From: Escherichia coli
GTDB taxonomy: Bacteria > Pseudomonadota > Gammaproteobacteria > Enterobacterales > Enterobacteriaceae
DNA: 64,000 nucleotides
NCBI RefSeq assembly: GCF_002854065.1
Contig: NZ_CP024147.1
Strand: one strand, 5' to 3'
A program made the translations under genes and the position numbers. Below, in pieces: positions 5,915 to 42,460 of the stretch (position 1 is the stretch's first letter; each line of letters begins with the position of its first letter). The notes under the pieces were generated by a model. It worked only from the letters and a program-made list of their open reading frames with translations, did not search any database and was not told the origin of the DNA.

Positions 5915-6015
5915 TAGTCTGGCGAAGATCATCCGATCTTCGCCTTGCACTTTTGTTTCACATTTCTGTGACATACTATCGGATGTGCGGTAATTGTATG
6001 GAACAGGAGACACAC

Positions 6016-8575: not shown

Positions 8576-8649
8576 ATATAATCCTTATAAAAAATATAAT
8601 GTTTAACTCGTCATATTGCTTATAAAAAATCCCCGGTAATGACTCCAAC

Positions 8650-9153
8650 TTATTGATAGTGTTTTATGTTCAGATAATGCCCGATGACTTTGTCATGCAG
8701 CTCCACCGATTTTGAGAACGACAGCGACTTCCGTCCCAGCCGTGCCAGGTGCTGCCTCAGATTCAGGTTATGCCGCTCAATTCGCTGCGTATATCGCTTG
8801 CTGATTACGTGCAGCTTTCCCTTCAGGCGGGATTCATACAGCGGCCAGCCATCCGTCATCCATATCACCACGTCAAAGGGTGACAGCAGGCTCATAAGAC
8901 GCCCCAGCGTCGCCATAGTGCGTTCACCGAATACGTGCGCAACAACCGTCTTCCGGAGCCTGTCATACGCGTAAAACAGCCAGCGCTGGCGCGATTTAGC
9001 CCCGACGTATCCCCACTGTTCGTCCATTTCCGCGCAGACGATGACGTCACTGCCCGGCTGTATGCGCGAGGTTACCGACTGCGGCCTGAGTTTTTTAAAT
9101 GGCGGAAAATCGTGTTGAGGCCAACGCCCATAATGCGGGCGGTTGCCCGGCAT
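8650..9153 (-). CDS. insB: IS1 transposase InsB
   Basis: 167-aa [19 protein letters not shown]... Confidence 0.9.
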
Positions 9154-9347
9154 CCAACGCCATTCATGGCCATATCAATGATTTTCTGGTGCGTACCGGG
9201 TTGAGAAGCGGTGTAAGTGAACTGCAGTTGCCATGTTTTACGGCAGTGAGAGCAGAGATAGCGCTGATGTCCGGCAGTGCTTTTGCCGTTACGCACCACC
9301 CCGTCAGTAGCTGAACAGGAGGGACAGCTGATAGAAACAGAAGCCAC
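9072..9347 (-). CDS. insA: IS1 InsA
   Basis: 91-aa [21 protein letters not shown]...; A6C frameshift motif before insB. Confidence 0.9.
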
Positions 9348-9660
9348 TGGAGCACCTCAAAAACACCATCATACACTAAATCAGTAAGTTGGCAGCATCA
9401 CCAAAATCCCCGTTCTCAGAGAAATAATATTTATTAAAATGGCAGGTCTTCTTTTTCTGATTACCGAAGACAAAGTGGCAATTACGTATAGTTTCCCGAT
9501 AAAGACACGACAGCAACATCCCGCATAAGGCATTGTTCTCTTTATCTTTGTACGGTACTTCATGGAACAGAGATTTTGACCTTGCGAATCGTGATGTCTG
9601 TTGGGGGCAATTTGCTCACTGAAGCGTGAGACTCGATTAAACGCACGAAACACAGAAATC

Positions 9661-18520: not shown

Positions 18521-19715
<1,195 letters not shown>

Positions 19716-22159: not shown

Positions 22160-23332
22160 TCAGGCCTTATGGTGGAAATAATCACTCAGGCGGGAAAACA
22201 TGCCGCCTTCCCCGACAGATTCCAGGGTAACCAGCGGCCAGTGCGCCACCTGTTTATCACGGTCGTAAAGTTCAATTTCCCCTACCCGCTGATGGGCGCT
22301 AATTGGCGCGGTGAGCTCTTTACCATCAAGGGTATATTTGGCTTTGATATGTGGAATTTCGGCTTTCGGTAGCACCATCCAGAACTCTTGTTCCGTTCCC
22401 AGGTCGATATTTTCTTTATCGCCATACCAGATGCGTTCCGTTCCGACCTTTTTCCCACGGTGCAAAATTTGCACCGTAGTAAAGTTTTGTTGCCCCCAAC
22501 GCAGTAATTTTCTTGCCTCTTCCTCACGACCTTTTGCACTGTCAGCCCCCATTACCACTGCAATGAGACGACGCTGCCCATCTACAGCCGAAGCAATGAG
22601 ATTAAACCCGGCACCAGAAGTATGACCCGTTTTCAGGCCGTCAACATTCATGGTTTTATCCCACAACAACCCGTTACGGTTTTGCTGGGTGATACCGTTC
22701 CAGGTGAGACTTTTCTCACTGTACATATGATAAAACTCGGGCTCGCCGTGGATGATAGCGCGAGAAAGCACAGCTAAATCATAAGCCGAGCTATGCTGGC
22801 CAGGTGCATCCAGACCATGCACTGTTTCAAAATGCGTATCCTTGAGATGCAGCTTCTCGGCATAGTTGTTCATCATTTCAACAAACTGCCGTTGCCCACC
22901 GGCAATATAGTCAGCCAGAGCAACACAAGCGTCATTTCCGGAATCCACAATTAAACCACGGCTTAAATCACGTACCGATACGCGATCGCCCTCTTTCAAA
23001 AACATCAGTGAAGAACCGACAAACACCGGATTATCTTTCGCCCACGCATCGCGCCCCACGGTGACAATATCGTCTGGCGTAATGCGATGACTATCGATAG
23101 CGCGATCCACGACATAACCCGTCATCAGCTTTGTCAGGCTGGCGGGATTGCGCTGTTGATGCTCATTACCCGCGGTGAGGATCTGTCCGGTGGTGTAATC
23201 CATCAGTACCCAGGACCCGGCTTGAATCTGTGGAGGCTGAGGTGAAAAAGGAATGTTTTCCGCCGCAAAACCAGACGATAAGTTAAAAACGAACAAAGAA
23301 GCAGCAATAATAAGACGGCGTTTCAACAGCAA
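22160..23332 (-). CDS. dacD: D-alanyl-D-alanine carboxypeptidase (PBP6b)
   Basis: 390-aa ORF with signal peptide and SxxK motif (ASLTK). Confidence 0.85.
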   Translation of the reverse strand: MLLKRRLIIAASLFVFNLSSGFAAENIPFSPQPPQIQAGSWVLMDYTTGQILTAGNEHQQRNPASLTKLMTGYVVDRAIDSHRITPDDIVTVGRDAWAKDNPVFVGSSLMFLKEGDRVSVRDLSRGLIVDSGNDACVALADYIAGGQRQFVEMMNNYAEKLHLKDTHFETVHGLDAPGQHSSAYDLAVLSRAIIHGEPEFYHMYSEKSLTWNGITQQNRNGLLWDKTMNVDGLKTGHTSGAGFNLIASAVDGQRRLIAVVMGADSAKGREEEARKLLRWGQQNFTTVQILHRGKKVGTERIWYGDKENIDLGTEQEFWMVLPKAEIPHIKAKYTLDGKELTAPISAHQRVGEIELYDRDKQVAHWPLVTLESVGEGGMFSRLSDYFHHKA

Positions 23333-24081: not shown

Positions 24082-25152
24082 TCAGGCCTCTTTGCCCTTC
24101 TCTATCGCTGAGGGCTTGTCAGGAAGCAATGCGCTTATACGTCCCTTAAGGTACTTGTACATTCTGACGTCGATGAATGCTGCGTATAAATACGCTAGCA
24201 CTATCGAGACAGCAATCATTTTTACCGCCCCCATAAATGGATCTCCCTCAACAATACCGGTAATCATCACAGGGAAATGGAGAAGGTACAGAGGGAAGCT
24301 GATAAACCCTAAAAACTGGACTGGTGCAGAGTAAAGGAACCGTTTAACCAGGGACTCATCATTCATGTAATCGACAGTTAGCAGGGGAAGAAATGCCACC
24401 ATGTAGAAATAATCCATCCTGTTGGTATGCGAAGGTTGAGCATAGAGCCCGGCAAAGCATACAAACAGACACATAGCCAAAAAAACATTCTTTTGAGGTA
24501 GTTTAGTGAAACTCTCGTACCATTTTAATTTTATGATCGAGTACATACCCGATCCCATCAAAAGACATGATGATGCAAAAACAAAATTGTACATCCCGAA
24601 AAGCTCTGGACTACCGAGCCCTCTGGCAGAAACAACAGCCAGATAAATAAATGCCAAAATAGAAATACATAACCTTGAAAGCGGCCCCATTCTCAAGAAC
24701 AGAACTGGAATCAACATGGACGCCCAAAATTCTATGCTGACACTCCACGAAGGTTCATTTATCAAATTGAATGATAATGGGGTAGACCCATGTATAAATG
24801 CTAAATTCGCTACCCATGTCCTGATACTAAATACGTAATCACCTGGCACATAACCACCATTAAGGCTATTTACGTAGTAAATGATTACCATTATCACTGA
24901 TGATATAAAGGTAAGAGGCCACAGTCTTGCCAGTCTATTCAAAAAATATGACGGGATAGACGCCCCATTTCTTACTGAGTGGGTAAGCACAAATCCCGAT
25001 ATGATGAAAAAATATGCAACAGCCAAGTGAGGGCCGTTGAATGGCCCATCATTTTTCCAACCAGTAACAGCATTGATGGCGTGATTTAGGAGCACTGCGC
25101 ATGCAAAAAGGCCGCGCAAACCATCAACAGCATAGAAGCGTTTAATTTCCAT
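24082..25152 (-). CDS. Acyltransferase family 3 membrane protein (OafA/Oac-like); candidate lysogenic-conversion O-acetyltransferase
   Basis: 356-aa multi-pass membrane ORF, N-terminal motif YAVDGLRGLFACAVLLNH typical of acyltransferase-3; AT-rich; sits at prophage end after the tail fibre gene; hairpin terminator 24057-24076. Confidence 0.7.
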   Translation of the reverse strand: MEIKRFYAVDGLRGLFACAVLLNHAINAVTGWKNDGPFNGPHLAVAYFFIISGFVLTHSVRNGASIPSYFLNRLARLWPLTFISSVIMVIIYYVNSLNGGYVPGDYVFSIRTWVANLAFIHGSTPLSFNLINEPSWSVSIEFWASMLIPVLFLRMGPLSRLCISILAFIYLAVVSARGLGSPELFGMYNFVFASSCLLMGSGMYSIIKLKWYESFTKLPQKNVFLAMCLFVCFAGLYAQPSHTNRMDYFYMVAFLPLLTVDYMNDESLVKRFLYSAPVQFLGFISFPLYLLHFPVMITGIVEGDPFMGAVKMIAVSIVLAYLYAAFIDVRMYKYLKGRISALLPDKPSAIEKGKEA

Positions 25153-25271
25153 AACAATTTATTTAAAAAAAGAAAAATTATACTAGAAATATATCATCAA
25201 CATCTATGCCATTGATGATTAAGTGATGGTTGTCACGGTTTTGTGTTTCTGGCTGGAATGCTGGCAGTGCT

Positions 25272-25460
25272 TTACTCGCTTGACTCAGGATCGGTGAATA
25301 CTCCATCTTCATAAATCCATCCAATTCTGCATGGTATTCCGTCTATTTTAACAACCTGATAATCATCAAAAATATGCCCCTCACCATCCCATATAACAAT
25401 ATTTACAACTATTCCATCTGTAATTAATGCATATCTCATGCAAACTCCTCCACAAGACAA
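25272..25460 (-). CDS. Small hypothetical phage protein downstream of tail fibre gene (possible tail-fibre assembly remnant)
   Basis: 62-aa ORF only; position where a tail-fibre chaperone is expected. Confidence 0.3.
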
Positions 25461-26362
25461 ATACCATCAGCACCTTCACCACCATAAAAACGCGTGGAGA
25501 AGACCTGCGTGTCATATGCGCCAGCGCCGCCACCGCCAGGGACTAATGCTTTCGCAATTCTCGGTGAATATACAGTACACTGCCCCGCTCTTCGGCTGCC
25601 ACCCCAAAAGCTTGAACCGCCGTACCCATTAAGGAACCTAGTATTATTTTGGCCATCTCCGCCATCTCCGCCGGCTAGATTTACATCACCACCAGACCCG
25701 GCAACTCCAACGCCGCCTGATGCATATACAGTGGAAGCAGTGGACGGGTTTCCGCCTGTGGCAACCATCCCACTAAATGTTGAGTTACCGCCTTTTGTTG
25801 CCTCAGTTCCGCCAGCACCGATAACCACGGCAAAGTTTGTGATGTCAGCAATATTGAACCATTTGATACCTGTAGCGCCTGCAGCCCCCCCAGCACCGGA
25901 AAAGTTATCGGTTGGGGAACCACTATTAAAAGCGCCACCTCCGCCACCACCCCCTCCCGTTAGAGTTACTTTGATGCGCTTCGTCAGCGGGTTTAGCGTT
26001 ACTGTTTTTGATGAGGTGATCCACTGCTCGGCAATCTTCCTACCTACGTATCCGTTGGTATCTCCCAAATCAAGGTTTGCGAGAGCCGTTTTCACCGTGC
26101 CATCCGATTTGATATCGCCAAACGGATTCTTGCGGCTTAACAGCAGAGCACGAAGCGCGGTAAGCAACTGGTCGTGCCGCGCCTTCTCCAGACTGGCACC
26201 AGATGCCTCAACAACGCTACAAAGTTCTTCCTGCAACATGTCAAAGTAGTCATCATCCAGATCGGTGGCAGGCGTGCCAGTCTGGGGGTTACCACGGGTA
26301 AAACCGTTCTTACCCGCGCCGAACTTATCCTTCTGCGCGGTTTTCGTGTCTATACGATGCAT
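25436..26362 (-). CDS. Phage tail fibre protein, glycine-rich
   Basis: 308-aa ORF with poly-Gly/GGxGG repeats and conserved tail-fibre N-terminus; follows baseplate genes. Confidence 0.65.
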
Positions 26363-26365
26363 GGA

Positions 26366-26950
26366 TTACTCCGGATATTTAAAAATTACGTAGGTATGCG
26401 ACGGGCAGAGTTTGTTAAGCACACACTCGACAACGGTGTCGCCCCAGATACGCAGTGCGGAATCACAGGGATCGCCACATGTCATCCAGGTGGTGTTGGT
26501 GGTGGTTGGCATGTTGACATGCCAGTAATACCGCCATTCCGGCGCATTCACCGCGTCAGTACAGGCCGATGAGCAGGTGAACGTGCTTTTGTCGTATCGC
26601 GTGATGGTGGCATCTGGTCTGCCCAGGGCAGCAAGCTGTGCAAGATAAAAATCCTCGTTGATGCCGCCCGCCAGGTTAACCTTCGCATCCAGCCGTTGCT
26701 GACGCTGGCGAAGGGTCTGCGTTCCCGCCGGAATACATTCATCCGGCAGACCGCACAGACGCTCCCAGCGGTTTATCAGTTCAGTGGTGGTGCGCGGATC
26801 CAGCTCCCGCATCAGGGCATCCGCACGCTGATGAACACGGGTTAATGACGGTGCCGCACCGGCAATCGCCGGATCGCTGGCTGACCACGCCGGACCGGGC
26901 GGCAACAGTGCCGATAACAGGCGGATGTAATCATCGTTTGTCACGTCCAT
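26366..26950 (-). CDS. Phage tail protein (Mu gp48 / YmfQ-like, DUF2313)
   Basis: 194-aa ORF in tail module between baseplate J and tail fibre. Confidence 0.5.
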
Positions 26951-27999
26951 GAAATCGTCCCCAGTACCGCCAGTTCGTTTTTCGCAATGGAGATATTGTC
27001 CACCGGTGCAAGCAACTGATGGCTGTATTCCCCGTTCGCACCGGAAATCGCCTCACTGATACGCGACACCTTCAGTTCTCCCTGCGGATAACCATCACGC
27101 AGCAGGAACGAACGCAACTCCGCGGTGATGGCAGCCCGTATTTCCGGTGTATCCGGCGTCACGCGGATATGAAAATCCACCGTATGTGCCACCGGCCTGA
27201 ACACATACAAGTCAGAACCTGCCACCGGGGCCAGTGGCCCGATATGTTGTATTGCCGCCGTTTCCGTTGATTCTTCCGGAATGGGATTAATCAGGTCACT
27301 GCTGGCAATCATCACACCGACAGTTCCCGTTCCCATCCAGTGACGGTATGTCCATGCGCGGGTAATGCCGGGCACTTCTTTAGCCCAGACGACATAGTCC
27401 CCGTCAGCCCCGCCCTGCGGCGTCCAGTAATACCGCTCAATGACGCGGGCGCGCCACGTTTCCAGATCTTCAGTATCGAATCCGCCAGTCAGGGTATCTG
27501 CAACACCGGAAGACGGCAGACCATTCACCGGCGTGACTAGGATTAATGCCGTACCGTCGTCAGCGTTACCGACCGCGCCTGCATTTGAGCAAGTGATCGG
27601 CACACGCAGGACACCACCGGAGCTGGTTGCATCGGCAGTTGCCGTGTACTGAACCAGGTCATCGCGCTGAATCACGCTCCCGGCAGTCACCTTCAGGCCA
27701 TCGCTGACACCTTCCCAGCGCATATACCCGCTGGCAGCCGTGGCCCCCTTGCGCGGACACCGTTTCATCGCAGCATGTCGCGCCAGCCAGGACTCATCGC
27801 ACAGGTCAGGCAGCATATTCATTGCCAGATAATCGATGTACCCGTAGACCGTATGCAGCGCCGCCGCATACACCTTTGCCCGCACGTCTTCATCCATGCG
27901 CCGGAGCGTGTTGCTGACGTCCAGCCTGGCGAATAAATCGTTACGGAGCATACTGATATTTTCTGCCAGCGTCGGGCGCTGAAATTCACTGTCCGCCAT
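26941..27999 (-). CDS. Baseplate J-like protein (Mu gp47-like)
   Basis: 352-aa ORF, position and size in Mu-like baseplate module. Confidence 0.55.
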
Positions 28000-28414
28000 G
28001 CGTTATCGCACTCCACAGATCATCAAAAGAAATCATTACCGGTCCGTCACGACGCCAGAGAGTGATACTGTTACCCAGTTCATTAATCCCGGTACGGCGG
28101 ATATCCAGATCAATACGGGACACCACGCCGTCATCAATCATCCATTGCAGGCATTCGCGGATATATCCCCTTACCGTCTGCACCAGCTGATTGGTCAGTT
28201 TGCTGCGCTGAAGCAGCCACAGTCGGGAGCCGTAACGGTCATTCTGTACCGCAGGCCAGGTATCCCCCCACCATCCCATCGGGACGTCGGCGTTGTCATC
28301 AGGCTCCGCCCGCCGCCAGGTAAACAGGGAAATCACCACGGCGCGGGTCAGCGGATCCAGCGGTGCGCTGGCGCAGGTGCGTTTACCGTTCACCGTCAGC
28401 CACAGTTCCATCAT
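27986..28414 (-). CDS. Phage baseplate protein (Mu gp46-like)
   Basis: 142-aa ORF overlapping neighbours, as in Mu-like baseplate operons. Confidence 0.5.
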   Translation of the reverse strand: MMELWLTVNGKRTCASAPLDPLTRAVVISLFTWRRAEPDDNADVPMGWWGDTWPAVQNDRYGSRLWLLQRSKLTNQLVQTVRGYIRECLQWMIDDGVVSRIDLDIRRTGINELGNSITLWRRDGPVMISFDDLWSAITHGGQ

Positions 28415-28959
28415 GCCTCCATCGCTTTATCAGGTTTGTCGGTGTTACTGCCCTGACCGTTCTCTCTGTGACGATGCCCGTTATAGGCAAGCCGCATCGC
28501 TGACATGGTGGTGCCGCCGGAGTCGCACAGGTCTTTCACCTGTCCGGTCACTTCCAGGTCCATTTCAAAACGTGCTTTAGGTGAATTGCGAAACGTGATC
28601 GTTTTACCTGCACCGTCCACCACGATCCCCTCCCGGGTCAGCGTCACGGACTGCCCCTGATCGTCATAGACAGCCACCTCACCCGTCTGCAGCCCTTTCA
28701 GGCGGTAGCGCCGGTCCGACACCGTAACAACCACCGCATGAGAACGGTCGCCATCCGGAAACAACACCACCGCTTCCGCACCGCTGTTTGCCCTTGCGGT
28801 AAAACCGTAGGGTTCAAGATGTTCAACCCCGGCTTTGGGTTCACCGGCAATCAGGGACACATCCACGGTCTGACATTTCGTGGCGGCACTGATGCTTTTC
28901 ACCACGGCCCGCCCAATCAGGCCGAGGAGTTGTCGCTGCATGGCTTCAATCGTCCTCAT
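28411..28959 (-). CDS. Baseplate assembly protein V / spike (Mu gp45-like)
   Basis: 182-aa ORF; position in module. Confidence 0.5.
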   Translation of the reverse strand: MRTIEAMQRQLLGLIGRAVVKSISAATKCQTVDVSLIAGEPKAGVEHLEPYGFTARANSGAEAVVLFPDGDRSHAVVVTVSDRRYRLKGLQTGEVAVYDDQGQSVTLTREGIVVDGAGKTITFRNSPKARFEMDLEVTGQVKDLCDSGGTTMSAMRLAYNGHRHRENGQGSNTDKPDKAMEA

Positions 28960-30038
28960 CAGAACGGGTCCTCCTGTACTCTGGCTTTTTTCTTTTTCCG
29001 CGCGCCGGGGGCTTCGGGTTCAGGCAGATAAGCATCAGGTGGGCCGACACGGATTTCCGTCAGGGTGCCGTTCTGGTCCTGAGTAAACGTGACTTCCGAA
29101 ACAAGCAGTTCGGTATTGTCGAAACCACAGACCGGATCAAAGACAATCACCCGCTGGTTGGGCTGCCACAGCGTACCGTTACACTGTCGCCAGCCCTGCA
29201 CCACATAGGTGGTTTCATCCGTCCGCGCCGCCCGTTGTCTGGCTTCAAAGTCCGCACGGGCAATACAGCCTGCCCCCGTAGCCTGCCCTGTCTGCCTGAT
29301 ATACATCGGACGGTAACGGGCAATAAATGCGTCCTCTGTGCGGGCCCGCAGCGCGGTGGTGGTGGCCTCACCGAAATCATCGTCGTTTCCGGCACGCTGC
29401 CCCGCCACCTGGTAAACAGAAAACCGCTCCCGGATACTCTTCTCCGTATCGCAGGAAAGGATGTTTTCCCCGAGTACCAGCGCAGTATGTGCCCGAGTTG
29501 AGCCAATACCGCCAATCACCAGCCTGCCGTGCGGGTCGTCGTAAGCCAGTGCCTGCTGCTGACCGAGTATTTTGTTGATTACCTCAATCACCGTTTCACC
29601 GTGATCAGGCTGAACATCAGGAATAACACCCGACGGCGCACCGCTGTTCACCACCTCAATGCCGAAAGGCGCAGCAAGCGCCTGCGCAATCTGCACCAGC
29701 GAGCGTCCGTTAAACTGTGTCGGTTCGGCTGCACAGTCAATCAGGTCAGCCGTCAGACTACGTCCGACAATACCGGTGCTGACCGAACGGGAATCGTAAC
29801 GAACGGGCGTCGCCTCCACCCAGCCGGTGATCACCAGCTCATCACCAATCAGCACTTCCACTTTTGAACCGTTTTTAATGCGCGGCTGAAGCGTGGTGAT
29901 ACCCTCATCTCCCGGCCACTGGCGGGTGATCTCCACACTGAAATCCCGCGCCAGCCGTTCAATACCGGCACCGATGCGCACCGATGTCCAGCCATTCCAC
30001 TCCCGGCCATTTACCCGTAGCGTGACATTGTCGTTCAT
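28959..30038 (-). CDS. Phage tail protein (Mu gp44 / P2 gpD-like)
   Basis: 359-aa ORF; position between DNA-circulation and baseplate genes. Confidence 0.5.
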   Translation of the reverse strand: MNDNVTLRVNGREWNGWTSVRIGAGIERLARDFSVEITRQWPGDEGITTLQPRIKNGSKVEVLIGDELVITGWVEATPVRYDSRSVSTGIVGRSLTADLIDCAAEPTQFNGRSLVQIAQALAAPFGIEVVNSGAPSGVIPDVQPDHGETVIEVINKILGQQQALAYDDPHGRLVIGGIGSTRAHTALVLGENILSCDTEKSIRERFSVYQVAGQRAGNDDDFGEATTTALRARTEDAFIARYRPMYIRQTGQATGAGCIARADFEARQRAARTDETTYVVQGWRQCNGTLWQPNQRVIVFDPVCGFDNTELLVSEVTFTQDQNGTLTEIRVGPPDAYLPEPEAPGARKKKKARVQEDPF

Positions 30039-31375
30039 TGCACTGGCACCTTCAGAGGGATCACCGGCACAAAGCCGGGATGCGTAATGGCATTACGCCG
30101 GATAATGTCCGCGTCACGCGCCGCGTTATCAAACCAGGTCGCCGCCAGCACCAGCGCGGGTAAAACCTCATCCGGTGTGCGCTGAATGATCCGTGCAGAC
30201 TGTTCAAGGCGCGTGTTGATATCCGCATTCAGATCTGCTTTCACCCGGCGCAGCGCCAGAAACAGCGCATCACTGGTTGTACGGGACAACTCCTTATCAA
30301 TTGCCGTATTCAGTGTGTCGCGAATGTCAGTCAGTTCTTCCCACGTCGGCAGGTCAACCGTGTTTTTCACCGCCGGTGCATTGTTCAGTGCCGGATGCGT
30401 GACGGAAGGCCAGCCAGTGCTCTGCGCGGGTGTTGTTGCCTGCCCCACTGCGGCATTCTGCATCACCGCGGAAGTTGTTGGCGCAGGCAATCGGGTGACG
30501 GCATACGCCGCTTCGCTGATTGCGGTCGTACGAAGGGTGCTGGCAACCACGTTACGCTGCTGCGTCGCCGTGGCGGTGGTTTTACTGTCCGTTTTCCAGA
30601 CGCCGCGCGGTTGCAGATCGCTGCCGAGGCTGACACCGGAAAGCGTTTTGATCATGGTGACCAGGTCGCTGGCGTTACCATAAAGGCGTTTCCCGGTACG
30701 CCACATTTTCTGCACCTGCTCAACGAAATTTTTGCCTGACGATGGCGGCGGCAGAAGTACCGAGATATCCCCCTGCAACAGCCTGGCGGCATCCGATACG
30801 GCAGAATCCACCACTTTCATCGCATCAGAAACATACCCCAGCATTATGCTGGCATTACCGATAACGTCGTTCTGCACGAAATCCGCAACACCATCGATAC
30901 TGAAACCGCTGAAGCTGTCACTGATGCAGTCATCCAGTGCAGAACAGGATGACATCAGCGTCTGCGCCGTCGCCGCACCTGATGTGGGGTAAGAGAGTTC
31001 TCCTGCTTCGACAAACTTCAGGTCAAAGCGGACAATACGCCCTTCACTTTTCGATGTGCTGACCCGAACTTCCCCGTCAACACAGACTTTCAGCTCACCA
31101 TATGTCGGGTGGACAAGCGTGCCTGGACCGGGTTTATTCAGCGCGTCAATCAGGCGATCGCGCTGGTCAAAGCAGTCATCTCCCACCACATAAGCTGTGA
31201 TGGACGGGCGGAAAGTGATTTTCCCCAGGTCTTCGGTATAGGGTTTGTCGCGGTTTGGGTATTCATGCGTTTCAACCCGACGTCCTACCGGGGCCCCTTC
31301 ATCTTCTACCTTGAACGGAACGCCGCGAAACGACGCTTCAACCAGTCTGTCTTTCCACGCCATTGTCTGCACCAA
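30035..31375 (-). CDS. Phage DNA circulation protein (Mu gp43 / N-like)
   Basis: 446-aa ORF; the expected upstream tape-measure/sheath/head genes are missing, replaced by IS1. Confidence 0.5.
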   Translation of the reverse strand: MVQTMAWKDRLVEASFRGVPFKVEDEGAPVGRRVETHEYPNRDKPYTEDLGKITFRPSITAYVVGDDCFDQRDRLIDALNKPGPGTLVHPTYGELKVCVDGEVRVSTSKSEGRIVRFDLKFVEAGELSYPTSGAATAQTLMSSCSALDDCISDSFSGFSIDGVADFVQNDVIGNASIMLGYVSDAMKVVDSAVSDAARLLQGDISVLLPPPSSGKNFVEQVQKMWRTGKRLYGNASDLVTMIKTLSGVSLGSDLQPRGVWKTDSKTTATATQQRNVVASTLRTTAISEAAYAVTRLPAPTTSAVMQNAAVGQATTPAQSTGWPSVTHPALNNAPAVKNTVDLPTWEELTDIRDTLNTAIDKELSRTTSDALFLALRRVKADLNADINTRLEQSARIIQRTPDEVLPALVLAATWFDNAARDADIIRRNAITHPGFVPVIPLKVPVQ

Positions 31376-31534
31376 TATGATTTGTTATAAGCTACTCTGT
31401 TTCAGACGCTTCTTTCGAAGCGCCAGAGAACATTTACCTTTAAGGAGAGGTATAAATGGAAATGTTTTTGCCGTTAATACTGGGTTTGTTGCTAGCCGTT
31501 TTCATAGGACGGTGGGCTTGGTAATGACTCCAAC

Positions 31535-32038
31535 TTATTGATAGTGTTTTATGTTCAGATAATGCCCGATGACTTTGTCATGCAGCTCCACCGATTTTGA
31601 GAACGACAGCGACTTCCGTCCCAGCCGTGCCAGGTGCTGCCTCAGATTCAGGTTATGCCGCTCAATTCGCTGCGTATATCGCTTGCTGATTACGTGCAGC
31701 TTTCCCTTCAGGCGGGATTCATACAGCGGCCAGCCATCCGTCATCCATATCACCACGTCAAAGGGTGACAGCAGGCTCATAAGACGCCCCAGCGTCGCCA
31801 TAGTGCGTTCACCGAATACGTGCGCAACAACCGTCTTCCGGAGCCTGTCATACGCATAAAACAGCCAGCGCTGGCGCGATTTAGCCCCGACATAGCCCCA
31901 CTGTTCGTCCATTTCCGCGCAGACGATGACGTCACTGCCCGGCTGTATGCGCGAGGTTACCGACTGCGGCCTGAGTTTTTTAAGTGACGTAAAATCGTGT
32001 TGAGGCCAACGCCCATAATGCGGGCAGTTGCCCGGCAT
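31535..32038 (-). CDS. insB: IS1 transposase InsB
   Basis: 167-aa ORF. Confidence 0.9.
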
Positions 32039-32232
32039 CCAACGCCATTCATGGCCATATCAATGATTTTCTGGTGCGTACCGGGTTGAGAAGCGGTGTA
32101 AGTGAACTGCAGTTGCCATGTTTTACGGCAGTGAGAGCAGAGATAGCGCTGATGTCCGGCGGTGCTTTTGCCGTTACGCACCACCCCGTCAGTAGCTGAA
32201 CAGGAGGGACAGCTGATAGAAACAGAAGCCAC
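31957..32232 (-). CDS. insA: IS1 InsA
   Basis: 91-aa ORF. Confidence 0.9.
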
Positions 32233-32327
32233 TGGAGCACCTCAAAAACACCATCATACACTAAATCAGTAAGTTGGCAGCATCACCCGTCAGATGAAAG
32301 AATTAATCGGTAACGAAGGAGATATTC

Positions 32328-35161: not shown

Positions 35162-35670
35162 GCACTATCACAAGAGAATGGCTGCAGCAGGCTATCAACG
35201 ATTATGAAAGCGTTCGTGATGAGCTTCCTTTCGGGCTTGATGATTACCAGGGGAATATCCTGGCTGCCCTGCGTATCGCACTGGCATCGCTGGAAGCAGA
35301 GCCGGTGGCGTGGAAGGTAACATTCACGCAAATTGACCGTGAATATAACACGTTCACTGGTATGTATTCTGACAAAGCAGAAGTCGAACGGTGGGTGCGG
35401 CTGCATAAAGCATGTAATTTTCGGGCAGATATAACACCGCTTTATACCGCCAAGCCAGTGCCGGTAACTCCGGATGGTTGGATAAGCTGTAGTGAGCGAA
35501 TGCCAGAGGACGGTCAGCACGTAATTATTTTATGTGATGGCGCATTCGTTCTTTATGCGCAATATCGAGACGGAGAGTTTTTCGATATTGTCCGCAATGG
35601 TGATGAATTTTTCGAAACACAGAGTCGCAATGTAACCGACTGGATGCAACTACCAGAACCTCCCCTTTGA
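35158..35670 (+). CDS. DUF551-type phage protein
   Basis: 170-aa ORF; C-terminal region (PDGWISCSERMPEDGQHVIILCDG) resembles DUF551. Confidence 0.5.
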   Translation: MSTITREWLQQAINDYESVRDELPFGLDDYQGNILAALRIALASLEAEPVAWKVTFTQIDREYNTFTGMYSDKAEVERWVRLHKACNFRADITPLYTAKPVPVTPDGWISCSERMPEDGQHVIILCDGAFVLYAQYRDGEFFDIVRNGDEFFETQSRNVTDWMQLPEPPL

Positions 35671-35766
35671 TAGCTAAGCTTATACATATCTTTTACATCA
35701 GCAATCTATTGTTAATCTCCAATCAATGTTACGTTGTCATCTCTCTCATGCTTTGGAGGTAGTGAT

Positions 35767-35958
35767 ATGTCTTGTCCAAAATGCGGTTCTGGAAATATTG
35801 CAAAAGAAAAAACAATGCGTGGATGGTCTGATGATTATGTGTGCTGCGATTGCGGATACAACGACTCTAAAGACGCATTTGGAGAGCGTGGTAAAAACGA
35901 GTTTGTCAAAATTAATAAAGAACGCGAAGGCGGTGATGCTGCCAACTTACTGATTTAG
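35767..35958 (+). pseudogene. Phage zinc-ribbon protein with C-terminus altered by IS1 insertion (native end ...EREGNEKS reconstructed across the IS)
   Basis: CxxC...CxxC motif (MSCPKCGSG...YVCCDCGY); GGAGGT RBS 6 nt upstream of ATG 35767; reading frame runs into the IS1 terminal repeat. Confidence 0.55.
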
Positions 35959-35986
35959 TGTATGATGGTGTTTTTGAGGTGCTCCA

Positions 35987-36262
35987 GTGGCTTCTGTTTC
36001 TATCAGCTGTCCCTCCTGTTCAGCTACTGACGGGGTGGTGCGTAACGGCAAAAGCACTGCCGGACATCAGCGCTATCTCTGCTCTCACTGCCGTAAAACA
36101 TGGCAACTGCAGTTCACTTACACCGCTTCTCAACCCGGTACGCACCAGAAAATCATTGATATGGCCATGAATGGCGTTGGATGCCGGGCAACCGCCCGCA
36201 TTATGGGCGTTGGCCTCAACACGATTTTCCGCCATTTAAAAAACTCAGGCCGCAGTCGGTAA
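35987..36262 (+). CDS. insA: IS1 InsA
   Basis: 91-aa ORF. Confidence 0.9.
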
Positions 36263-36684
36263 CCTCGCGCATACAGCCGGGCAGTGACGTCATCGTCTGC
36301 GCGGAAATGGACGAACAGTGGGGATACGTCGGGGCTAAATCGCGCCAGCGCTGGCTGTTTTACGCGTATGACAGGCTCCGGAAGACGGTTGTTGCGCACG
36401 TATTCGGTGAACGCACTATGGCGACGCTGGGGCGTCTTATGAGCCTGCTGTCACCCTTTGACGTGGTGATATGGATGACGGATGGCTGGCCGCTGTATGA
36501 ATCCCGCCTGAAGGGAAAGCTGCACGTAATCAGCAAGCGATATACGCAGCGAATTGAGCGGCATAACCTGAATCTGAGGCAGCACTTGGCACGGCTGGGA
36601 CGGAAGTCGCTGTCGTTCTCAAAATCGGTGGAGCTGCATGACAAAGTCATCGGGCATTATCTGAACATAAAACACTATCAATAA
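36181..36684 (+). CDS. insB: IS1 transposase InsB
   Basis: 167-aa ORF. Confidence 0.9.
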
Positions 36685-36823
36685 GTTGGAGTCATTACCC
36701 GCGAAGGCAACGAAAAAAGCTAATTTATTTATTCATATATGAAAACAATGTAATAAATATTCGAATTGAAGAATTGAAAGAACACCAAGCCGCCTGATGG
36801 CGGTTTTTTATTGGAGACAAGAA

Positions 36824-37168
36824 ATGTCAGATTTGGCTATGAAGGTTTTGAAATGGCAATCGACTGGCGATGTCGGCATCAGTAGCGCAACTCTTGCCTC
36901 AATCGCATGTGGCCTGAAAAAGAATATCTATGGTCATCACTTCGGCGCTCCCCATGACGCAGCAGACTTTCGGCGATGCGTTGCACTTGTTGAGCAGATT
37001 CCAGAAATCAGAGATTCATTCGACAAGGTTGCAAAGCGCGTTCCGGCATTCAAAGGAATCCTCAACGAATGGGATTCACTCGTTGCTCTGTTGAAGTCTG
37101 AAATGAAGACGTACGGGAACAAAGCACCAGAGACTTACAGAAGAATCAGCGAGCTACGCAAGGACTAA
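36824..37168 (+). CDS. Hypothetical phage protein (moron-like unit bracketed by hairpin/T-run elements)
   Basis: Start at ATG 36824 (MSDLAMKVLKWQ...) with GGAGA RBS; GC hairpin plus T-run at 36789-36809 and a similar element at 37209-37229. Confidence 0.45.
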   Translation: MSDLAMKVLKWQSTGDVGISSATLASIACGLKKNIYGHHFGAPHDAADFRRCVALVEQIPEIRDSFDKVAKRVPAFKGILNEWDSLVALLKSEMKTYGNKAPETYRRISELRKD

Positions 37169-37245
37169 CGCCTCACACTCGATGAGGCCTGTACATATCT
37201 GATAGATCCGCTATATGGCGGTTTATTTTTGCCTGGAGAATTAAG

Positions 37246-37437
37246 ATGACCGATACCAGCCTGATTCCTGAGAAAGAAGTGATGAACAAGCTCGGTGTTT
37301 CATCACGTCAGACAATCTGGAACTATACCAAACGGCACGGATTTCCGAAGCCAGTCAGAACCCACCCCAAATCATACCTTCGTGAAGCTGTTGAAGGGTG
37401 GATTCTTAACGGTGGCGTTAATCAGAAATGCTCCTGA
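37246..37437 (+). CDS. alpA: AlpA-family phage transcriptional regulator / excisionase-like
   Basis: 63-aa ORF with HTH (VSSRQTIWNYTKRHGFPKP), convergent with and adjacent to integrase. Confidence 0.7.
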   Translation: MTDTSLIPEKEVMNKLGVSSRQTIWNYTKRHGFPKPVRTHPKSYLREAVEGWILNGGVNQKCS

Positions 37438-38596
37438 TGTGCCAGAACAATTTATCAGCGTGAAGCTCATACGCTTTGCGCTGAGCCTCTATCCAGTCGT
37501 GTTTATTGTATACGGACATTATCCCGCCAAGTTCATGACCGAGCATTCGCTCAGTAACATGAGGCTCGACATTCATCTCGGACAGACGTGTAACAAGCGT
37601 TCTTCTGAAATCGTGTGTTCGCCAGTAACCTAGATCCATCCCTCCCCTTATTCTATTTACGAATCGGTTGGCTGCAGCGATGCTGATCGGTTTGTTTATG
37701 TCTTCTCCAGGGAAAAGAACATCATTGTACGTTGTCATGGCCTTTTCGAGGAAAGGCTTAATTTGTTCGAAGATTGGACGGCGGATAACATTACCCATCT
37801 TGCTATGCTCTTTCGGTACGGTCCATACGTTTTCCAGCAGGTCAAATTCTGTCTTTTTTGCCAGCCTAAGCTCTGAGAGCCTCGCCCCCCACAGCATAAG
37901 CATCTGATGAAGTAGCTTATTTGACGTAGACGCACGGCTTCTTTCAATAGCAAGCCAAATCTTAGCCAGTTCGTGATACGACAGTACCCGATCCCCTACC
38001 TCAGCGCGGGAGCCGAAGTCCCTTGGTTGGATGCTCATAATTGCGCAACTATCTATCAACTGACGCCGCATGCACCAACTTATTGCTGATCTTAGTTGAC
38101 TTAGCACCTGCCTTGCTCGGCGTGGATTATCTCTTTCTTCTTCGGTAAGCAGGTCAACCCATTGCTTAACCGTGATAGAAGATGCCGGACGATTAGGAAA
38201 GGCGTCATGCATGCGCTTCATAACCGTTGATCGGTAAAGTGCCTGGGTCTTTTCTCTGAGAGTTGTAGAGACGTAGTTGTCGAACCAGTAGTCGAGACAC
38301 TGGGCGACCGTCATGGAGTTCTCCACCTTCTCTTCAAAATAAGTGCGTGGATCCGTTCCTGAGAAATAGAGCTTTCGCAAGTCAGCAGTGATCTGTCTGG
38401 CATCCTTCAAAGACAGGGATGGGTATCGACCAAGCCCAAGTCGATTAGGCTTGCCATGCCAGCGATAGCGGTACTGGAACTGGATGACCCCCTTCGGTGA
38501 AATTCGTACGCTGAGGCCATCGGCATCAGCCACTTCTTGTGGGCCCGAATATGGTTTACCATAAATACTACGCAGTTTTGTGTCGCTTATAGCCAT
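37418..38596 (-). CDS. int: Tyrosine-type phage integrase (P4-type, N-terminal arm-binding domain)
   Basis: 392-aa ORF with integrase catalytic region (HDFRRT...LGH...Y); adjacent to attR. Confidence 0.85.
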   Translation of the reverse strand: MAISDTKLRSIYGKPYSGPQEVADADGLSVRISPKGVIQFQYRYRWHGKPNRLGLGRYPSLSLKDARQITADLRKLYFSGTDPRTYFEEKVENSMTVAQCLDYWFDNYVSTTLREKTQALYRSTVMKRMHDAFPNRPASSITVKQWVDLLTEEERDNPRRARQVLSQLRSAISWCMRRQLIDSCAIMSIQPRDFGSRAEVGDRVLSYHELAKIWLAIERSRASTSNKLLHQMLMLWGARLSELRLAKKTEFDLLENVWTVPKEHSKMGNVIRRPIFEQIKPFLEKAMTTYNDVLFPGEDINKPISIAAANRFVNRIRGGMDLGYWRTHDFRRTLVTRLSEMNVEPHVTERMLGHELGGIMSVYNKHDWIEAQRKAYELHADKLFWHIRSISD

Positions 38597-38605
38597 AAAT
38601 AATAT

Positions 38606-38648
38606 TTGGTACGCTCAGAAATAATGGTTTGGTACACATCTGGTACAC
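38606..38648. repeat. Direct repeats TTTGGTAC(G/A)C x3, putative integrase arm-type sites (attR side)
   Basis: tttggtacgc 38606-38615, tttggtacac 38628-38637, ctggtacac 38640-38648; matching pair on attL side at 23638-23660. Confidence 0.5.
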
Positions 38649-38777
38649 AATATCACATGGACAACAGCGCACAGTAAACAACTATATTTGACGTTCGTAG
38701 ACATACTCAGGTGAAAAAATGGTTGTTTTTCGAGTTATAACAGACAGTTAATTAACTACAGTGGACAATGCTAGACA

Positions 38778-40202
38778 ATGACAGACGCAGATAAACAACC
38801 TACCTTCCTCTTTCACGATTACGAAACCTTTGGCACGCACCCCGCGTTAGATCGCCCTGCACAGTTCGCAGCCATTCGCACCGATAGCGAATTCAATGTC
38901 ATCGGAGAACCCGAAGTCTTTTACTGCAAGCCCGCTGATGACTATTTACCCCAGCCAGGAGCAGTATTAATTACCGGTATTACCCCGCAGGAAGCACGGG
39001 CGAAAGGAGAAAACGAAGCCGCGTTTGCCGCCCGTATTCACTTGCTTTTTACCGTACCGAAGACCTGTATTCTGGGCTACAACAATGTGCGTTTCGACGA
39101 CGAAGTCACACGCAACATTTTTTATCGTAATTTCTACGATCCTTACGCCTGGAGCTGGCAAAACCGCAATTCGCGCTGGGATCTGCTTGACGTGATGCGC
39201 GCCTGCTATGCCCTGCGCCCGGACGGCATCAACTGGCCGGAAAACGACGACGGTCTGCCGAGCTTCCGCCTGGAACATCTCACCAAGGCCAACGGTATTG
39301 AACACAGTAACGCCCATGATGCGATGGCCGACGTTTACGCGACCATCGCCATGGCGAAGCTGGTGAAGGCCCAACAGCCAAAGCTGTTTGATTATCTGTA
39401 TGCCTACCGGGGCAAAAACAAGCTGATGACGCTGATTGACGTCCCGCAGATGAAGCCACTGGTGCATGTCTCGGGAATGTTTGGCGCCTGGCGCGGAAAC
39501 ACCAGCTGGATTGCGCCGCTGGCCTGGCATCCGGATAACCGTAATGCGGTGATCATGGTCGACCTGGCGGGCGACATCGCCCCGCTGCTCGAGCTGGATG
39601 CCGATACGCTGCGCGAGCGCCTGTATACGCCGAAGGCCGAGCTCGGCGACAGTTCGCCGGTGCCGATTAAGCTGGTGCATCTGAATAAGTGCCCGGTGCT
39701 GGCGCAGGCCAATACCCTGCGCCCAGAAGACGCTGACCGTTTAGGCATTAACCGACAGCACTGCCTGGATAACCTGAAACTGCTGCGCGATAACCCGCAG
39801 GTGCGCGAGAAGGTGGTGGCGATTTTTGCTGAAGCCGAGCCGTTTGTCGCATCGGACAACGTCGACGCCCAGCTTTATAACGGTTTCTTTAGCGACGCCG
39901 ACCGCGCGGCGATGAAAATCGTGCTGGAGACCGAGCCGCGCAATCTGCCGGCGCTGGACATTACCTTCGCCGACCCGCGTATTGAGAAGCTGCTGTTTAA
40001 CTTCCGCGCGCGCAACTTCCCCGGCACGCTGGATGAAAACGAGCAACAGCGCTGGCTGGAACACCGTCGGCAGATCTTCACCCCGGAATTTTTACAGGCC
40101 TACGCCCAGCAACTGGAGATGTTGTACGGTCAGTATGAGGGGAATAACGAGAAGCTATCGCTGCTGAAGGCGCTGTATCAGTACGTGCAGGAGATTGTTT
40201 AA
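38778..40202 (+). CDS. sbcB: Exodeoxyribonuclease I, with phage-supplied promoter and first ~11 codons (MTDADKQPTFLF...)
   Basis: 474-aa ORF with DnaQ-like exonuclease N-terminus (FLFHDYETFG); hairpin terminator 40211-40241 downstream. Confidence 0.9.
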   Translation: MTDADKQPTFLFHDYETFGTHPALDRPAQFAAIRTDSEFNVIGEPEVFYCKPADDYLPQPGAVLITGITPQEARAKGENEAAFAARIHLLFTVPKTCILGYNNVRFDDEVTRNIFYRNFYDPYAWSWQNRNSRWDLLDVMRACYALRPDGINWPENDDGLPSFRLEHLTKANGIEHSNAHDAMADVYATIAMAKLVKAQQPKLFDYLYAYRGKNKLMTLIDVPQMKPLVHVSGMFGAWRGNTSWIAPLAWHPDNRNAVIMVDLAGDIAPLLELDADTLRERLYTPKAELGDSSPVPIKLVHLNKCPVLAQANTLRPEDADRLGINRQHCLDNLKLLRDNPQVREKVVAIFAEAEPFVASDNVDAQLYNGFFSDADRAAMKIVLETEPRNLPALDITFADPRIEKLLFNFRARNFPGTLDENEQQRWLEHRRQIFTPEFLQAYAQQLEMLYGQYEGNNEKLSLLKALYQYVQEIV

Positions 40203-41494: not shown

Positions 41495-41560
41495 AACGAA
41501 TCCCAGGTGATGCTGCCAACTTACTGATTTAGTGTATGATGGTGTTTTTGAGGTGCTCCA

Positions 41561-41836
41561 GTGGCTTCTGTTTCTATCAGCTGTCCCTCCTGTTCAGCTA
41601 CTGACGGGGTGGTGCGTAACGGCAAAAGCACCGCCGGACATCAGCGCTATCTCTGCTCTCACTGCCGTAAAACATGGCAACTGCAGTTCACTTACACCGC
41701 TTCTCAACCCGGTACGCACCAGAAAATCATTGATATGGCCATGAATGGCGTTGGATGCCGGGCAACTGCCCGCATTATGGGCGTTGGCCTCAACACGATT
41801 TTACGTCACTTAAAAAACTCAGGCCGCAGTCGGTAA
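41561..41836 (+). CDS. insA: IS1 InsA
   Basis: 91-aa ORF. Confidence 0.9.
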
Positions 41837-42258
41837 CCTCGCGCATACAGCCGGGCAGTGACGTCATCGTCTGCGCGGAAATGGACGAACAGTGGGGCTA
41901 TGTCGGGGCTAAATCGCGCCAGCGCTGGCTGTTTTACGCGTATGACAGTCTCCGGAAGACGGTTGTTGCGCACGTATTCGGTGAACGCACTATGGCGACG
42001 CTGGGGCGTCTTATGAGCCTGCTGTCACCCTTTGACGTGGTGATATGGATGACGGATGGCTGGCCGCTGTATGAATCCCGCCTGAAGGGAAAGCTGCACG
42101 TAATCAGCAAGCGATATACGCAGCGAATTGAGCGGCATAACCTGAATCTGAGGCAGCACCTGGCACGGCTGGGACGGAAGTCGCTGTCGTTCTCAAAATC
42201 GGTGGAGCTGCATGACAAAGTCATCGGGCATTATCTGAACATAAAACACTATCAATAA
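41755..42258 (+). CDS. insB: IS1 transposase InsB
   Basis: 167-aa ORF (FTSLKK variant). Confidence 0.9.
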
Positions 42259-42460
42259 GTTGGAGTCATTACCCGAATCCCAGTAAAGCCCCGCAAATCA
42301 TGCCACTTATTATCATGTGCAACATAAGAATCAATTAACTCAATATTATCAGTCTTAAAATTATTCCTGACCCCGCCGGACGGCTCCAATAACCAAAAGC
42401 TCTATATTATTCCCGACGGTTATTAATATTGATTTTTTAATCACCCCACAAACTTAAGAC

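Follow-up and report, generated by a model that had tools for sequence, protein, structure and literature searches.

A PHROG 1229 gene in an Escherichia coli prophage remnant as a candidate interchangeable cassette of the lambdoid exo-xis region

Introduction

Morons of lambdoid phages are promoter-gene-terminator units that are expressed in the lysogen, as exemplified by bor and lom of lambda and by gp15 of HK97. The lambdoid exo-xis genes undergo early transcription from pL with N antitermination, and they are tied to lysis-lysogeny behavior (PMC8614690). Conserved boundary sequences as a concept in lambdoid mosaicism are credited to Susskind & Botstein and to Clark et al. (2001), both as cited in PMC3029335. 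In addition, the integration of an Sf101-type integrase at sbcB has been described, as have IS-disrupted Sf101-like remnants at sbcB in Shigella flexneri (PMC4159516).

Herein we analyze a single small gene in a prophage next to sbcB, located in a 64,000-nucleotide stretch of DNA from E. coli (contig NZ_CP024147.1, assembly GCF_002854065.1) that is referred to throughout as the window. We propose, and consider reasonably probable, that this target gene is an interchangeable single-gene cassette at the variable, xis-proximal end of the lambdoid/P22-like exo-xis (pL) operon and, more tentatively, that it encodes an early, host-directed protein.

Results

The Gene and Its Surroundings

The target gene is an ORF of 114 aa (MSDLAMKVLKWQSTGDVGISSATLASIACGL...) on the + strand at 36824-37168 (ATG 36824, TAA 37166-37168). 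It is situated as originally described, between an IS1-split zinc-ribbon gene and alpA, and the hairpin, T-run and GGAGA motif that had been reported on each side of it were both located in the sequence. Its own GGAGA ribosome-binding site (36813-36817, + strand) lies 6 nt 5' of the ATG, and 'ggagacaagaaATG' at this site is kept in all close homologues, whatever the sequence upstream. The ORF finder also gave a 123-aa version with an ATG at 36797, inside the loop of the first hairpin, which was rejected as the real start because the phage EC.P3 sequence matches only from 'attggagacaagaaATG' on.

The + strand order in the window is erf (32507), ssb (33215), several ea-type genes, eaG::IS1, the target gene and alpA. 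The zinc-ribbon gene is of the eaG/hkaD type (59 aa when intact), with 98-99% DNA identity to the 'Eag protein'/hkaD genes of Sf101, HK620 and HK629, and its product matches PHROG 2945 (E=3.9e-30). It is cut into a 5' part (35767-35931, + strand) and a 3' remainder (36700-36723, + strand; ...REGNEKS, stop 36721-23), the latter recognized from the uninterrupted copies in E. coli strain 2-1 and in Sf101. The intervening IS1 (35932-36699, + strand; 768 bp, with insA/insB on +) is complete, matches both IS1 ends exactly and is flanked by a 9 bp target duplication, cgcgaaggc, at 35923-35931 and 36700-36708. Downstream of the target gene, the alpA-type excisionase/regulator gene (37246-37437, + strand; 63 aa) matches PHROG 66, 'excisionase and transcriptional regulator' (E=1.9e-8), and is named 'AlpA family' in RefSeq. 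A tyrosine integrase ORF of the Sf101/2851/mEp234 type (37418-38596, - strand) converges on alpA with an overlap of 20 nt, and sbcB (38778-40202) lies beyond the integrase. The integrase region has 98-99% DNA identity to mEp234, 2851, Sf101 and HK140. A search of Rfam over 35600-38800 returned no RNA family.

The prophage is bounded by dacD (22163-23332) and sbcB, and it is a composite remnant in which an O-acetyltransferase gene, myovirus baseplate and tail-fibre genes and an IS1 (31520-32287) are followed by a lambdoid early-left region from erf onward. Neither pL nor N was found in the window. The target gene is here probably silent, or expressed by read-through only, because it resides in a decayed remnant that has been severed from pL by IS1. 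As a separate observation, the encoded protein is identical in sequence to that of an isolated phage despite the remnant state of the prophage.

A Large and Constrained Phage Protein Family

The target protein has a full-length HMM match to PHROG 1229 (E=1.8e-51, 174 bits), with residues 1-114 aligned to positions 1-113 of the 116 in the profile, and PHROGs 15291 and 8038 are related families. Placement in a routine phage structural or regulatory family would have counted against the original prediction, and in homology searches no such family claims the target. Searches of Pfam and NCBIfam gave no match for the target protein, and the PHROG 1229 family is without any Pfam or NCBIfam model. 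In addition, 37 longer family members were assigned no Pfam family at E<=0.001 and no informative fused domain; one of the members of 267-346 aa is a tandem duplication, and the extensions of these proteins have no PHROG or Pfam identity. PADLOC defence-protein HMMs gave 0 families at E<=0.1, searches of the PDB by sequence, with both the single sequence and a profile, gave chance matches only (E>0.1), and the source databases hold no names for ten distant family members. Literature searches on PHROG 1229, the mEp phages, anti-defence and exo-xis found no publication that treats the target gene. The protein is already catalogued in RefSeq, UniProt and PHROGs and is an ordinary member of PHROG 1229. 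Hence the sequence is not new, and its value lies in its belonging to a large family that has no detectable fold relative.

The family is widely distributed. The target protein is 100% identical in amino acid sequence to a protein of phage EC.P3 and 94-98% identical to those of mEp043, mEp234, the Stx phages 1717 and WGPS6 and Salmonella phage g341c. For P22-like Salmonella phages the identity falls to 62%, and it is 33-58% for homologues encoded by Cronobacter, Yersinia (PY54), Vibrio, Klebsiella, Mannheimia and Clavibacter phages. Members of PHROG 1229 also occur in mEp213, phage 2851, SPN9CC and many Vibrio phages, and a 25%-identical copy is found beside methyltransferases in ~109 Pseudomonas megaplasmids. 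An exhaustive HMMER scan yielded 1,918 family clusters at 50% identity. A target-type gene is present in 275 phage records, in every one of which it is annotated as hypothetical, and the full-length gene is present in 914 of the 5,426 complete E. coli genomes (17%), with up to 4 copies per genome and the annotation 'hypothetical protein' throughout.

That the target might be a non-functional ORF, or a pseudogene decaying in a dead prophage, is a reading to which the IS1-riddled state of the remnant and its disconnection from pL lend themselves, as do the truncated and chimeric versions of the gene that occur in other genomes. It is scarcely credible when set against the intact ORF and the 100% identity of its product to that of an isolated phage, EC.P3, from whose copy the gene differs by 0 non-synonymous and 7 synonymous changes. 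Among close homologues dN/dS is 0.05-0.19, the differences being almost all synonymous, and deep conservation, invariant residues and a very confident predicted fold weigh in the same direction. A dead ORF is thus effectively refuted for the gene family: the target gene is intact, widespread and under purifying selection.

Boundary Elements and the Variable Slot

The first of the two flanking elements, hairpin 1 with its T6 run, spans 36787-36809 on the + strand, with CCGCC at 36790-94, the loop TGAT, GGCGG at 36799-803 and the T-run at 36804-09. In the terminator scan it has an 8-bp stem that includes G-U pairs and 5 GC pairs, and its fold of -13.4 kcal/mol (z -3.5) was equaled by 0/200 shuffles. 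Hairpin 2 with its T-run (37208-37230, + strand) consists of CCGCT (37208-12), ATAT, GGCGG (37217-21) and TTTATTTTT (37222-30), and is followed by the GGAGA of alpA at 37235-39 and the alpA ATG at 37246. It has a 5-bp stem and a z of -0.7, and 42/200 shuffles were as good. Hence, when an intrinsic terminator is taken to be a GC stem-loop with a U-run that is stabler than chance, hairpin 1 has the properties of a predicted terminator, or intrinsic-terminator-like element, whereas hairpin 2 falls short in stability. In the alignment the two hairpins share the core ATGGCGGTTT and the T-run-GGAGA layout, which identifies hairpin 2 as a direct repeat of hairpin 1, weak and diverged, that forms the left edge of the alpA-int module. 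The hairpin 2 element also trails a different cassette in Sf101.

The origin of hairpin 1 is evident from a comparison with lambda(DE3). A 64-bp boundary element at 36750-36813 (+ strand) comprises the last codons of orf55 (...DVTNIRIEELKEHQAA, with the stop codon in the loop), the hairpin and the T-run, and lambda(DE3) has the same sequence in the order orf55-hairpin-xis. In mEp043 the element still codes for the 3' end of a 55-aa gene, and many E. coli genomes match the element only, without the target gene. By these alignments hairpin 1 is a predicted terminator inherited from lambda orf55 and is not private to the target gene. A second conserved boundary, at 37170-37200 (+ strand), was found by alignment with SPN9CC, mEp043 and Sf101 and is left over from the 5' end of a P22-type xis (codons SLTLDEACAFL). 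The same sequence in SPN9CC is the start of a real xis, which begins 5 nt past the stop codon of the target homologue.

Such elements are not confined to the sequences seen in the window. The O157 prophages and SPN9CC have another hairpin (ctcgctacggcgag and a T-run) upstream of the target homologue, and in EC.P3 no hairpin was found upstream of it; in all of these, the match to the window picks up again either from the T-run or from 'ggagacaagaaATG'. The Mannheimia homologue has an unrelated terminator on either side, and both follow the same hairpin-T-run-GGAG-ATG layout. Elsewhere, junctions fall right after the stop codon, inside the xis remnant or around codon 56 of the gene itself. The count of terminator-like sites shows no enrichment over shuffled sequence, with 6 vs 2.8±1.9 over 3.2 kb and 7 vs 6.6±3.2 over 6.3 kb. 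As judged from sequence comparison, the bracket around the target gene is generic operon punctuation together with junction material, and not a private set of promoter and terminator.

The slot that these elements define exists in several states. The target gene occupies it in the window, mEp234, phage 2851, Stx phage 1717 and the O157 prophages. HK140 and E. coli MSB1_9D have an empty slot with a single hybrid hairpin, whose left half is that of hairpin 1 and whose right half is that of hairpin 2. The depositors of the HK140 sequence annotated this hybrid as a 'rho-independent terminator.' In Sf101 the same flanks enclose a different, unannotated ORF of 71 aa with a hydrophobic N-terminus, which also occurs in 70 E. 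coli genomes. Among E. coli genomes both span classes are present, one of ~252-258 bp and the other of ~672-676 bp. The conserved edges and the hybrid empty site that exchange at boundaries would leave behind are both apparent in the alignments, and it is exactly at the flanking hairpin elements that the aligned relatives differ, the slot being filled, empty with a hybrid, or occupied by another ORF. The expectation of a variable slot beside the excision and integration genes is therefore borne out by the filled, empty and alternative states in relatives.

Is the Gene a Moron?

The target gene had been described as moron-like and independently terminated. Its presence or absence in close relatives is in keeping with this, and neither a promoter of its own nor an atypical composition was found. 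In a consensus scan, which weak or non-sigma-70 promoters could escape, there was no sigma-70-like site near the target gene on the + strand, and the distance of 14 nt between the T-run and the ATG leaves no room for a promoter. The GC content of the gene is 0.46-0.48 vs 0.40-0.52 in neighboring phage (non-IS1) sequence. A hairpin is present downstream, but this is the weak hairpin 2, assigned to the alpA-int module. Nor is the gene rare, given its occurrence in 17% of complete E. coli genomes.

A true moron, with a promoter of its own, expression in the repressed prophage and a benefit to the lysogen in the form of phage defence, superinfection exclusion or fitness, would be in accord with presence/absence polymorphism at a variable slot beside int, with a terminator on either side of the gene, with the AT-rich stretch upstream (36720-36780) and with the intact state of the gene in decayed remnants, including those of the window and of E. 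coli strain 2-1. We nevertheless regard it as distinctly unlikely, as there is no promoter-like site nearby on the + strand, transcription from a more distant upstream promoter would run into hairpin 1, the GC content is not atypical and PADLOC gives no match. In addition, 66 of 70 IMG/VR loci with a family member have no integrase nearby and lie in tight early operons, an arrangement unfit for a gene that benefits the lysogen. The earlier moron reading is thus partly supported. The lone terminated gene is indeed a self-contained, single-gene accessory cassette, but its hairpins are shared with neighboring modules and are not its own signals, and with no promoter match from hairpin 1 to the ribosome-binding site, ordinary GC and an early-operon orientation, the label itself does not fit. 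We favor a cassette of the exo-xis operon because the gap between the hairpin and the gene has no promoter match, the GC content is unexceptional and the erf, ssb and ea genes run in the same direction as the target.

Position in the Early-Left Operon

On the strand of the pL operon, the target gene is found after the recombination genes and ahead of xis, and in the window, mEp043, SPN9CC and the O157 prophages no further gene separates it from xis/alpA and int. The same order, with the homologue last before xis, is found in Mannheimia phage 1152AP2 (33% identity) and in the Acinetobacter phage-plasmid pANC7919.1 (~30%). Its orientation is invariably that of the early-left genes, with xis/alpA as the next gene in temperate relatives.

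The wider family was surveyed at the 70 IMG/VR loci. An integrase-like match lies within 4 kb of the family member at 4/70, three of the four matches being full-length ORFs (L060, L070 and L074), and a general linkage of the family to integrase was dropped on this count. No neighboring gene family co-occurs with the target family at these 70 loci beyond one clade of related contigs. Other neighbors of family members are exonucleases, DNA methyltransferases, DnaB helicase, RusA, Lar-like genes and integrase, and Klebsiella phage Carvaje and Clavibacter phage CN1A have no annotated integrase within 3 kb of the homologue.

These arrangements bear on whether the protein is an accessory factor of excision or integration, such as a modulator or stabilizer of Xis/AlpA or Int or a directionality co-factor. 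The order homologue-xis-integrase recurs in elements as distant as E. coli lambdoids (with three types of xis), P22-like phages, 1152AP2 and pANC7919.1, in Salmonella P22-likes the stop codon and the xis start almost abut, and at the three IMG/VR loci with a full-length integrase the latter is downstream on the same strand. However, the target pairs freely with unrelated xis/int modules, HK140, Sf101 and HK544 use the same alpA-int module without it, and an integrase within 4 kb is the exception among family members. The family also occurs in Pseudomonas megaplasmids beside methyltransferases, in Carvaje and in CN1A, and the protein has no HTH and no similarity to the Xis family. The synteny arises because the target gene sits at the end of the early-left operon, and an excision factor is in our estimation quite improbable.

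Predicted Structure and Conserved Residues

The AlphaFold2 model of the target protein (pLDDT 96.2) has seven helices and predicts a soluble, all-alpha protein of a single domain. In an alignment of 54 sequences, the residues W11, G18, S20, P43, D45, D48, R51, C52 and W83 are invariant and present in the target, and S21 (96%), G30, L55 and P60 are near-invariant. These residues could be purely structural, serving as helix caps and core. With a pI of 9.2 for the target and of 4.6-9.6 across the family, net charge is not conserved, and a role as a DNA mimic or general nucleic-acid binder was dropped in view of this range. No HTH or Xis/AlpA-type fold or family match was obtained for the target in the PHROG and Pfam searches, and no likeness in sequence or fold was found to characterized inhibitors of defence such as Ocr, Gam, Abc2, Acb and Tad. 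The protein is probably not structural, not a DNA mimic and not an excision protein.

The conserved residues S20, S21, D45, D48, R51, C52, W11 and W83 make up a putative polar/aromatic cluster that may be an interaction site. One form of counter-defence that this brings to mind is a small enzyme or a sponge for a nucleotide-like ligand, either an immune signalling nucleotide or an NTP. The invariant residues are of the kind found in ligand pockets, with Ser-Ser at a helix N-terminus, D-x-x-D, Arg, Cys and two Trp around a putative pocket, the single-domain protein has no partner gene, and anti-restriction-type genes (Lar-like genes and orphan DNA methyltransferases) are repeatedly in the vicinity. 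The protein has no sequence or fold likeness to any solved sponge or nucleotide hydrolase, though, and in the AlphaFold2 model Cys52 is located mid-helix, which is atypical for a nucleophile, so that we deem a nucleotide-binding role unlikely.

A broader and still tentative view, which we hold to be possible though not probable, is that PHROG 1229 represents a new and widespread class of early phage and plasmid effectors with a previously unseen all-helical fold, in which a predicted Ser-Ser/Asp-x-x-Asp/Arg-Cys/Trp pocket sequesters or modifies a host immune signal or factor. If this were true, there would be a new counter-defence or host-takeover family in ~1/6 of complete E. coli genomes, in many marine Vibrio phages and in Pseudomonas megaplasmids.

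Discussion

We propose that the target gene functions as a cassette of the exo-xis operon in the following manner. By analogy with lambda, transcription from pL by N-antiterminated polymerase would pass through the hairpins in an intact phage, and the protein would be made early in infection or induction and would be silent in the repressed lysogen. In the lysogen, or wherever N is lacking, hairpin 1 would block stray transcription. The hairpins may also double as short conserved boundary sequences where cassettes are exchanged or lost through homologous recombination, as suggested by the end-products seen in relatives. Once made, the protein would act alone and early by binding a conserved host macromolecule or a small ligand, in host takeover or in counter-defence. 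A solo role directed at a host target is suggested because the family is broadly distributed in phages and plasmids, has no partner gene, has early-operon neighbors and retains invariant polar and aromatic residues. The idea of a host-takeover or counter-defence binder is the weakest step of the proposal and is a guess.

The locus has a significance that extends beyond the remnant in which it was found. It is a textbook-quality case of terminator-bearing boundary sequences that would allow single genes to be swapped within an operon. PHROG 1229 is an example of phage 'dark matter' that is large, strongly constrained and single-domain, with a confident model, no fold relative and no partner gene, and finding its function would allow thousands of genes to be annotated together. 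The target gene also sits in the exo-xis region that affects the lysis-lysogeny outcome, including that of the Shiga-toxin phages 2851 and 1717.

The remnant itself resembles the IS-disrupted, Sf101-like remnants at sbcB of S. flexneri (PMC4159516). The closest counterparts of the target gene are the variable exo-xis genes of lambda, such as orf55 and ea8.5, and their equivalents in Stx phages. Like these, it lies between the recombination genes and xis in the same orientation, and it is small, non-essential and variable between phages; indeed, its upstream flank is the 3' end of lambda orf55 itself. Lambda does not have the target gene, which is also not among the genes tested in the exo-xis studies that we found, and the protein is unrelated in sequence and fold to both Ea8.5 and Orf55, the latter having a beta-rich, Gp2-like model. 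With morons the target shares the property of being a single extra gene, present or absent among relatives and followed by a terminator-like hairpin. Unlike morons, it has no promoter match and no compositional anomaly, it is inside a co-oriented early operon and its terminators are common to the neighboring modules. Finally, the locus is reminiscent of the linker sequences of lambdoid phages, which are short, conserved intergenic stretches beside interchangeable genes (as cited in PMC3029335), and the empty site here is a precise hybrid of the two flanking copies. Unlike dedicated linkers, the boundaries here are remnants of neighboring genes, the 3' end of orf55 and the 5' end of xis, together with a terminator, and further junctions are found elsewhere.

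The Xis Remnant and the Cassette Slot

Immediately 3′ of the stop codon of the 114-aa target gene (PHROG 1229; 36824-37168, +) lies a 31-nt 5′-terminal leftover of a P22-type xis gene (37170-37200; codons SLTLDEACAFL), which indicates that the alpA-int module took the place of a P22-type xis-int through recombination within xis. The 3′ ends of the convergent alpA (+) and int (-) genes overlap by 20 nt (37418-37437), so any early-left transcription that reads through alpA would run antisense to int. The same 31-nt xis remnant is found in phage Sf101 (KJ832078), where it lies 3′ of another cassette: the hairpin-bounded slot that holds the target in the window is occupied there by an unannotated 71-aa ORF (1625-1840; MAAIHIVSIICNAIQIVACIIFVFSIL...) with a hydrophobic N-terminus. 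Its DNA recurs, always without annotation, in 70-79 complete E. coli genomes.

Rare chimeric genes (encoding the family proteins P0015, P0052, and P0063) join half of the target to a gene for DUF550 (PF04447), a dATP/dGTP pyrophosphohydrolase, with the joints at microhomologies of 2-3 residues, and several phages, including PA28 and phi345, retain only target codons 1-56 (PHROG 8038). Taken together, these chimeras and truncations indicate that the interior of the target gene also holds recombination junctions. The target domain occurs twice in tandem in a 333-aa metagenomic protein (P0080), the first copy of which lacks several invariant residues.

A Composite Prophage at sbcB

The segment that separates dacD from the lambdoid early genes of the window (24085-32287) carries a gene for an O-acetyltransferase (24085-25152, -) together with genes for myovirus baseplate and tail-fibre proteins (25.4-31.4 kb, -), and it ends at an IS1. 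Since these genes lie beside lambdoid early genes, the sbcB "prophage" is composite and combines two or more types of phage, with IS1 joining or cutting them, and it resembles the Sf101-like remnants reported for sbcB in S. flexneri (PMC4159516). The 64-kb window contains four complete IS1 copies (8635-9402, -; 31520-32287, -; 35932-36699, +; 41506-42273, +) and one IS5-family transposase gene (18670-19647, -), an unusually high IS load of the kind typical of Shigella-like genomes. A promoter-like site (32274-32303, +; TTGGCA-18 nt-AAGAAT with an extended TG), a consensus match only, spans the edge of the second IS1 copy and is directed toward the erf-ssb-ea genes; this candidate IS1-junction hybrid promoter may drive the orphaned early segment.

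A second decayed sbcB prophage, in E. coli strain 2-1 (5309-6737), is reduced to eaG-target-alpA-int, with a truncated tail-needle gene abutting this block. Prophage decay tends to spare the int-proximal block, including the target.

Distant Relatives and Comparable Systems

A full-length target homologue with 25% identity is encoded by the Pseudomonas putida plasmid p12969-DIM (5995-6351) and also occurs in about 109 Pseudomonas megaplasmids. It is flanked by an HTH regulator on one side and a site-specific DNA methyltransferase on the other, with a further methylase and the gene for an SOS-response peptidase nearby, surroundings that may represent an establishment or anti-restriction neighbourhood. 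In Mannheimia phage 1152AP2 (2494-3409), every small int-proximal early-operon gene has its own annotated rho-independent terminator: one comes after ant, one after gene 34, and one after gene 33, and each abuts the next GGAG. The E. coli lambdoids share this style of terminator/GGAG punctuation, with unrelated sequences.
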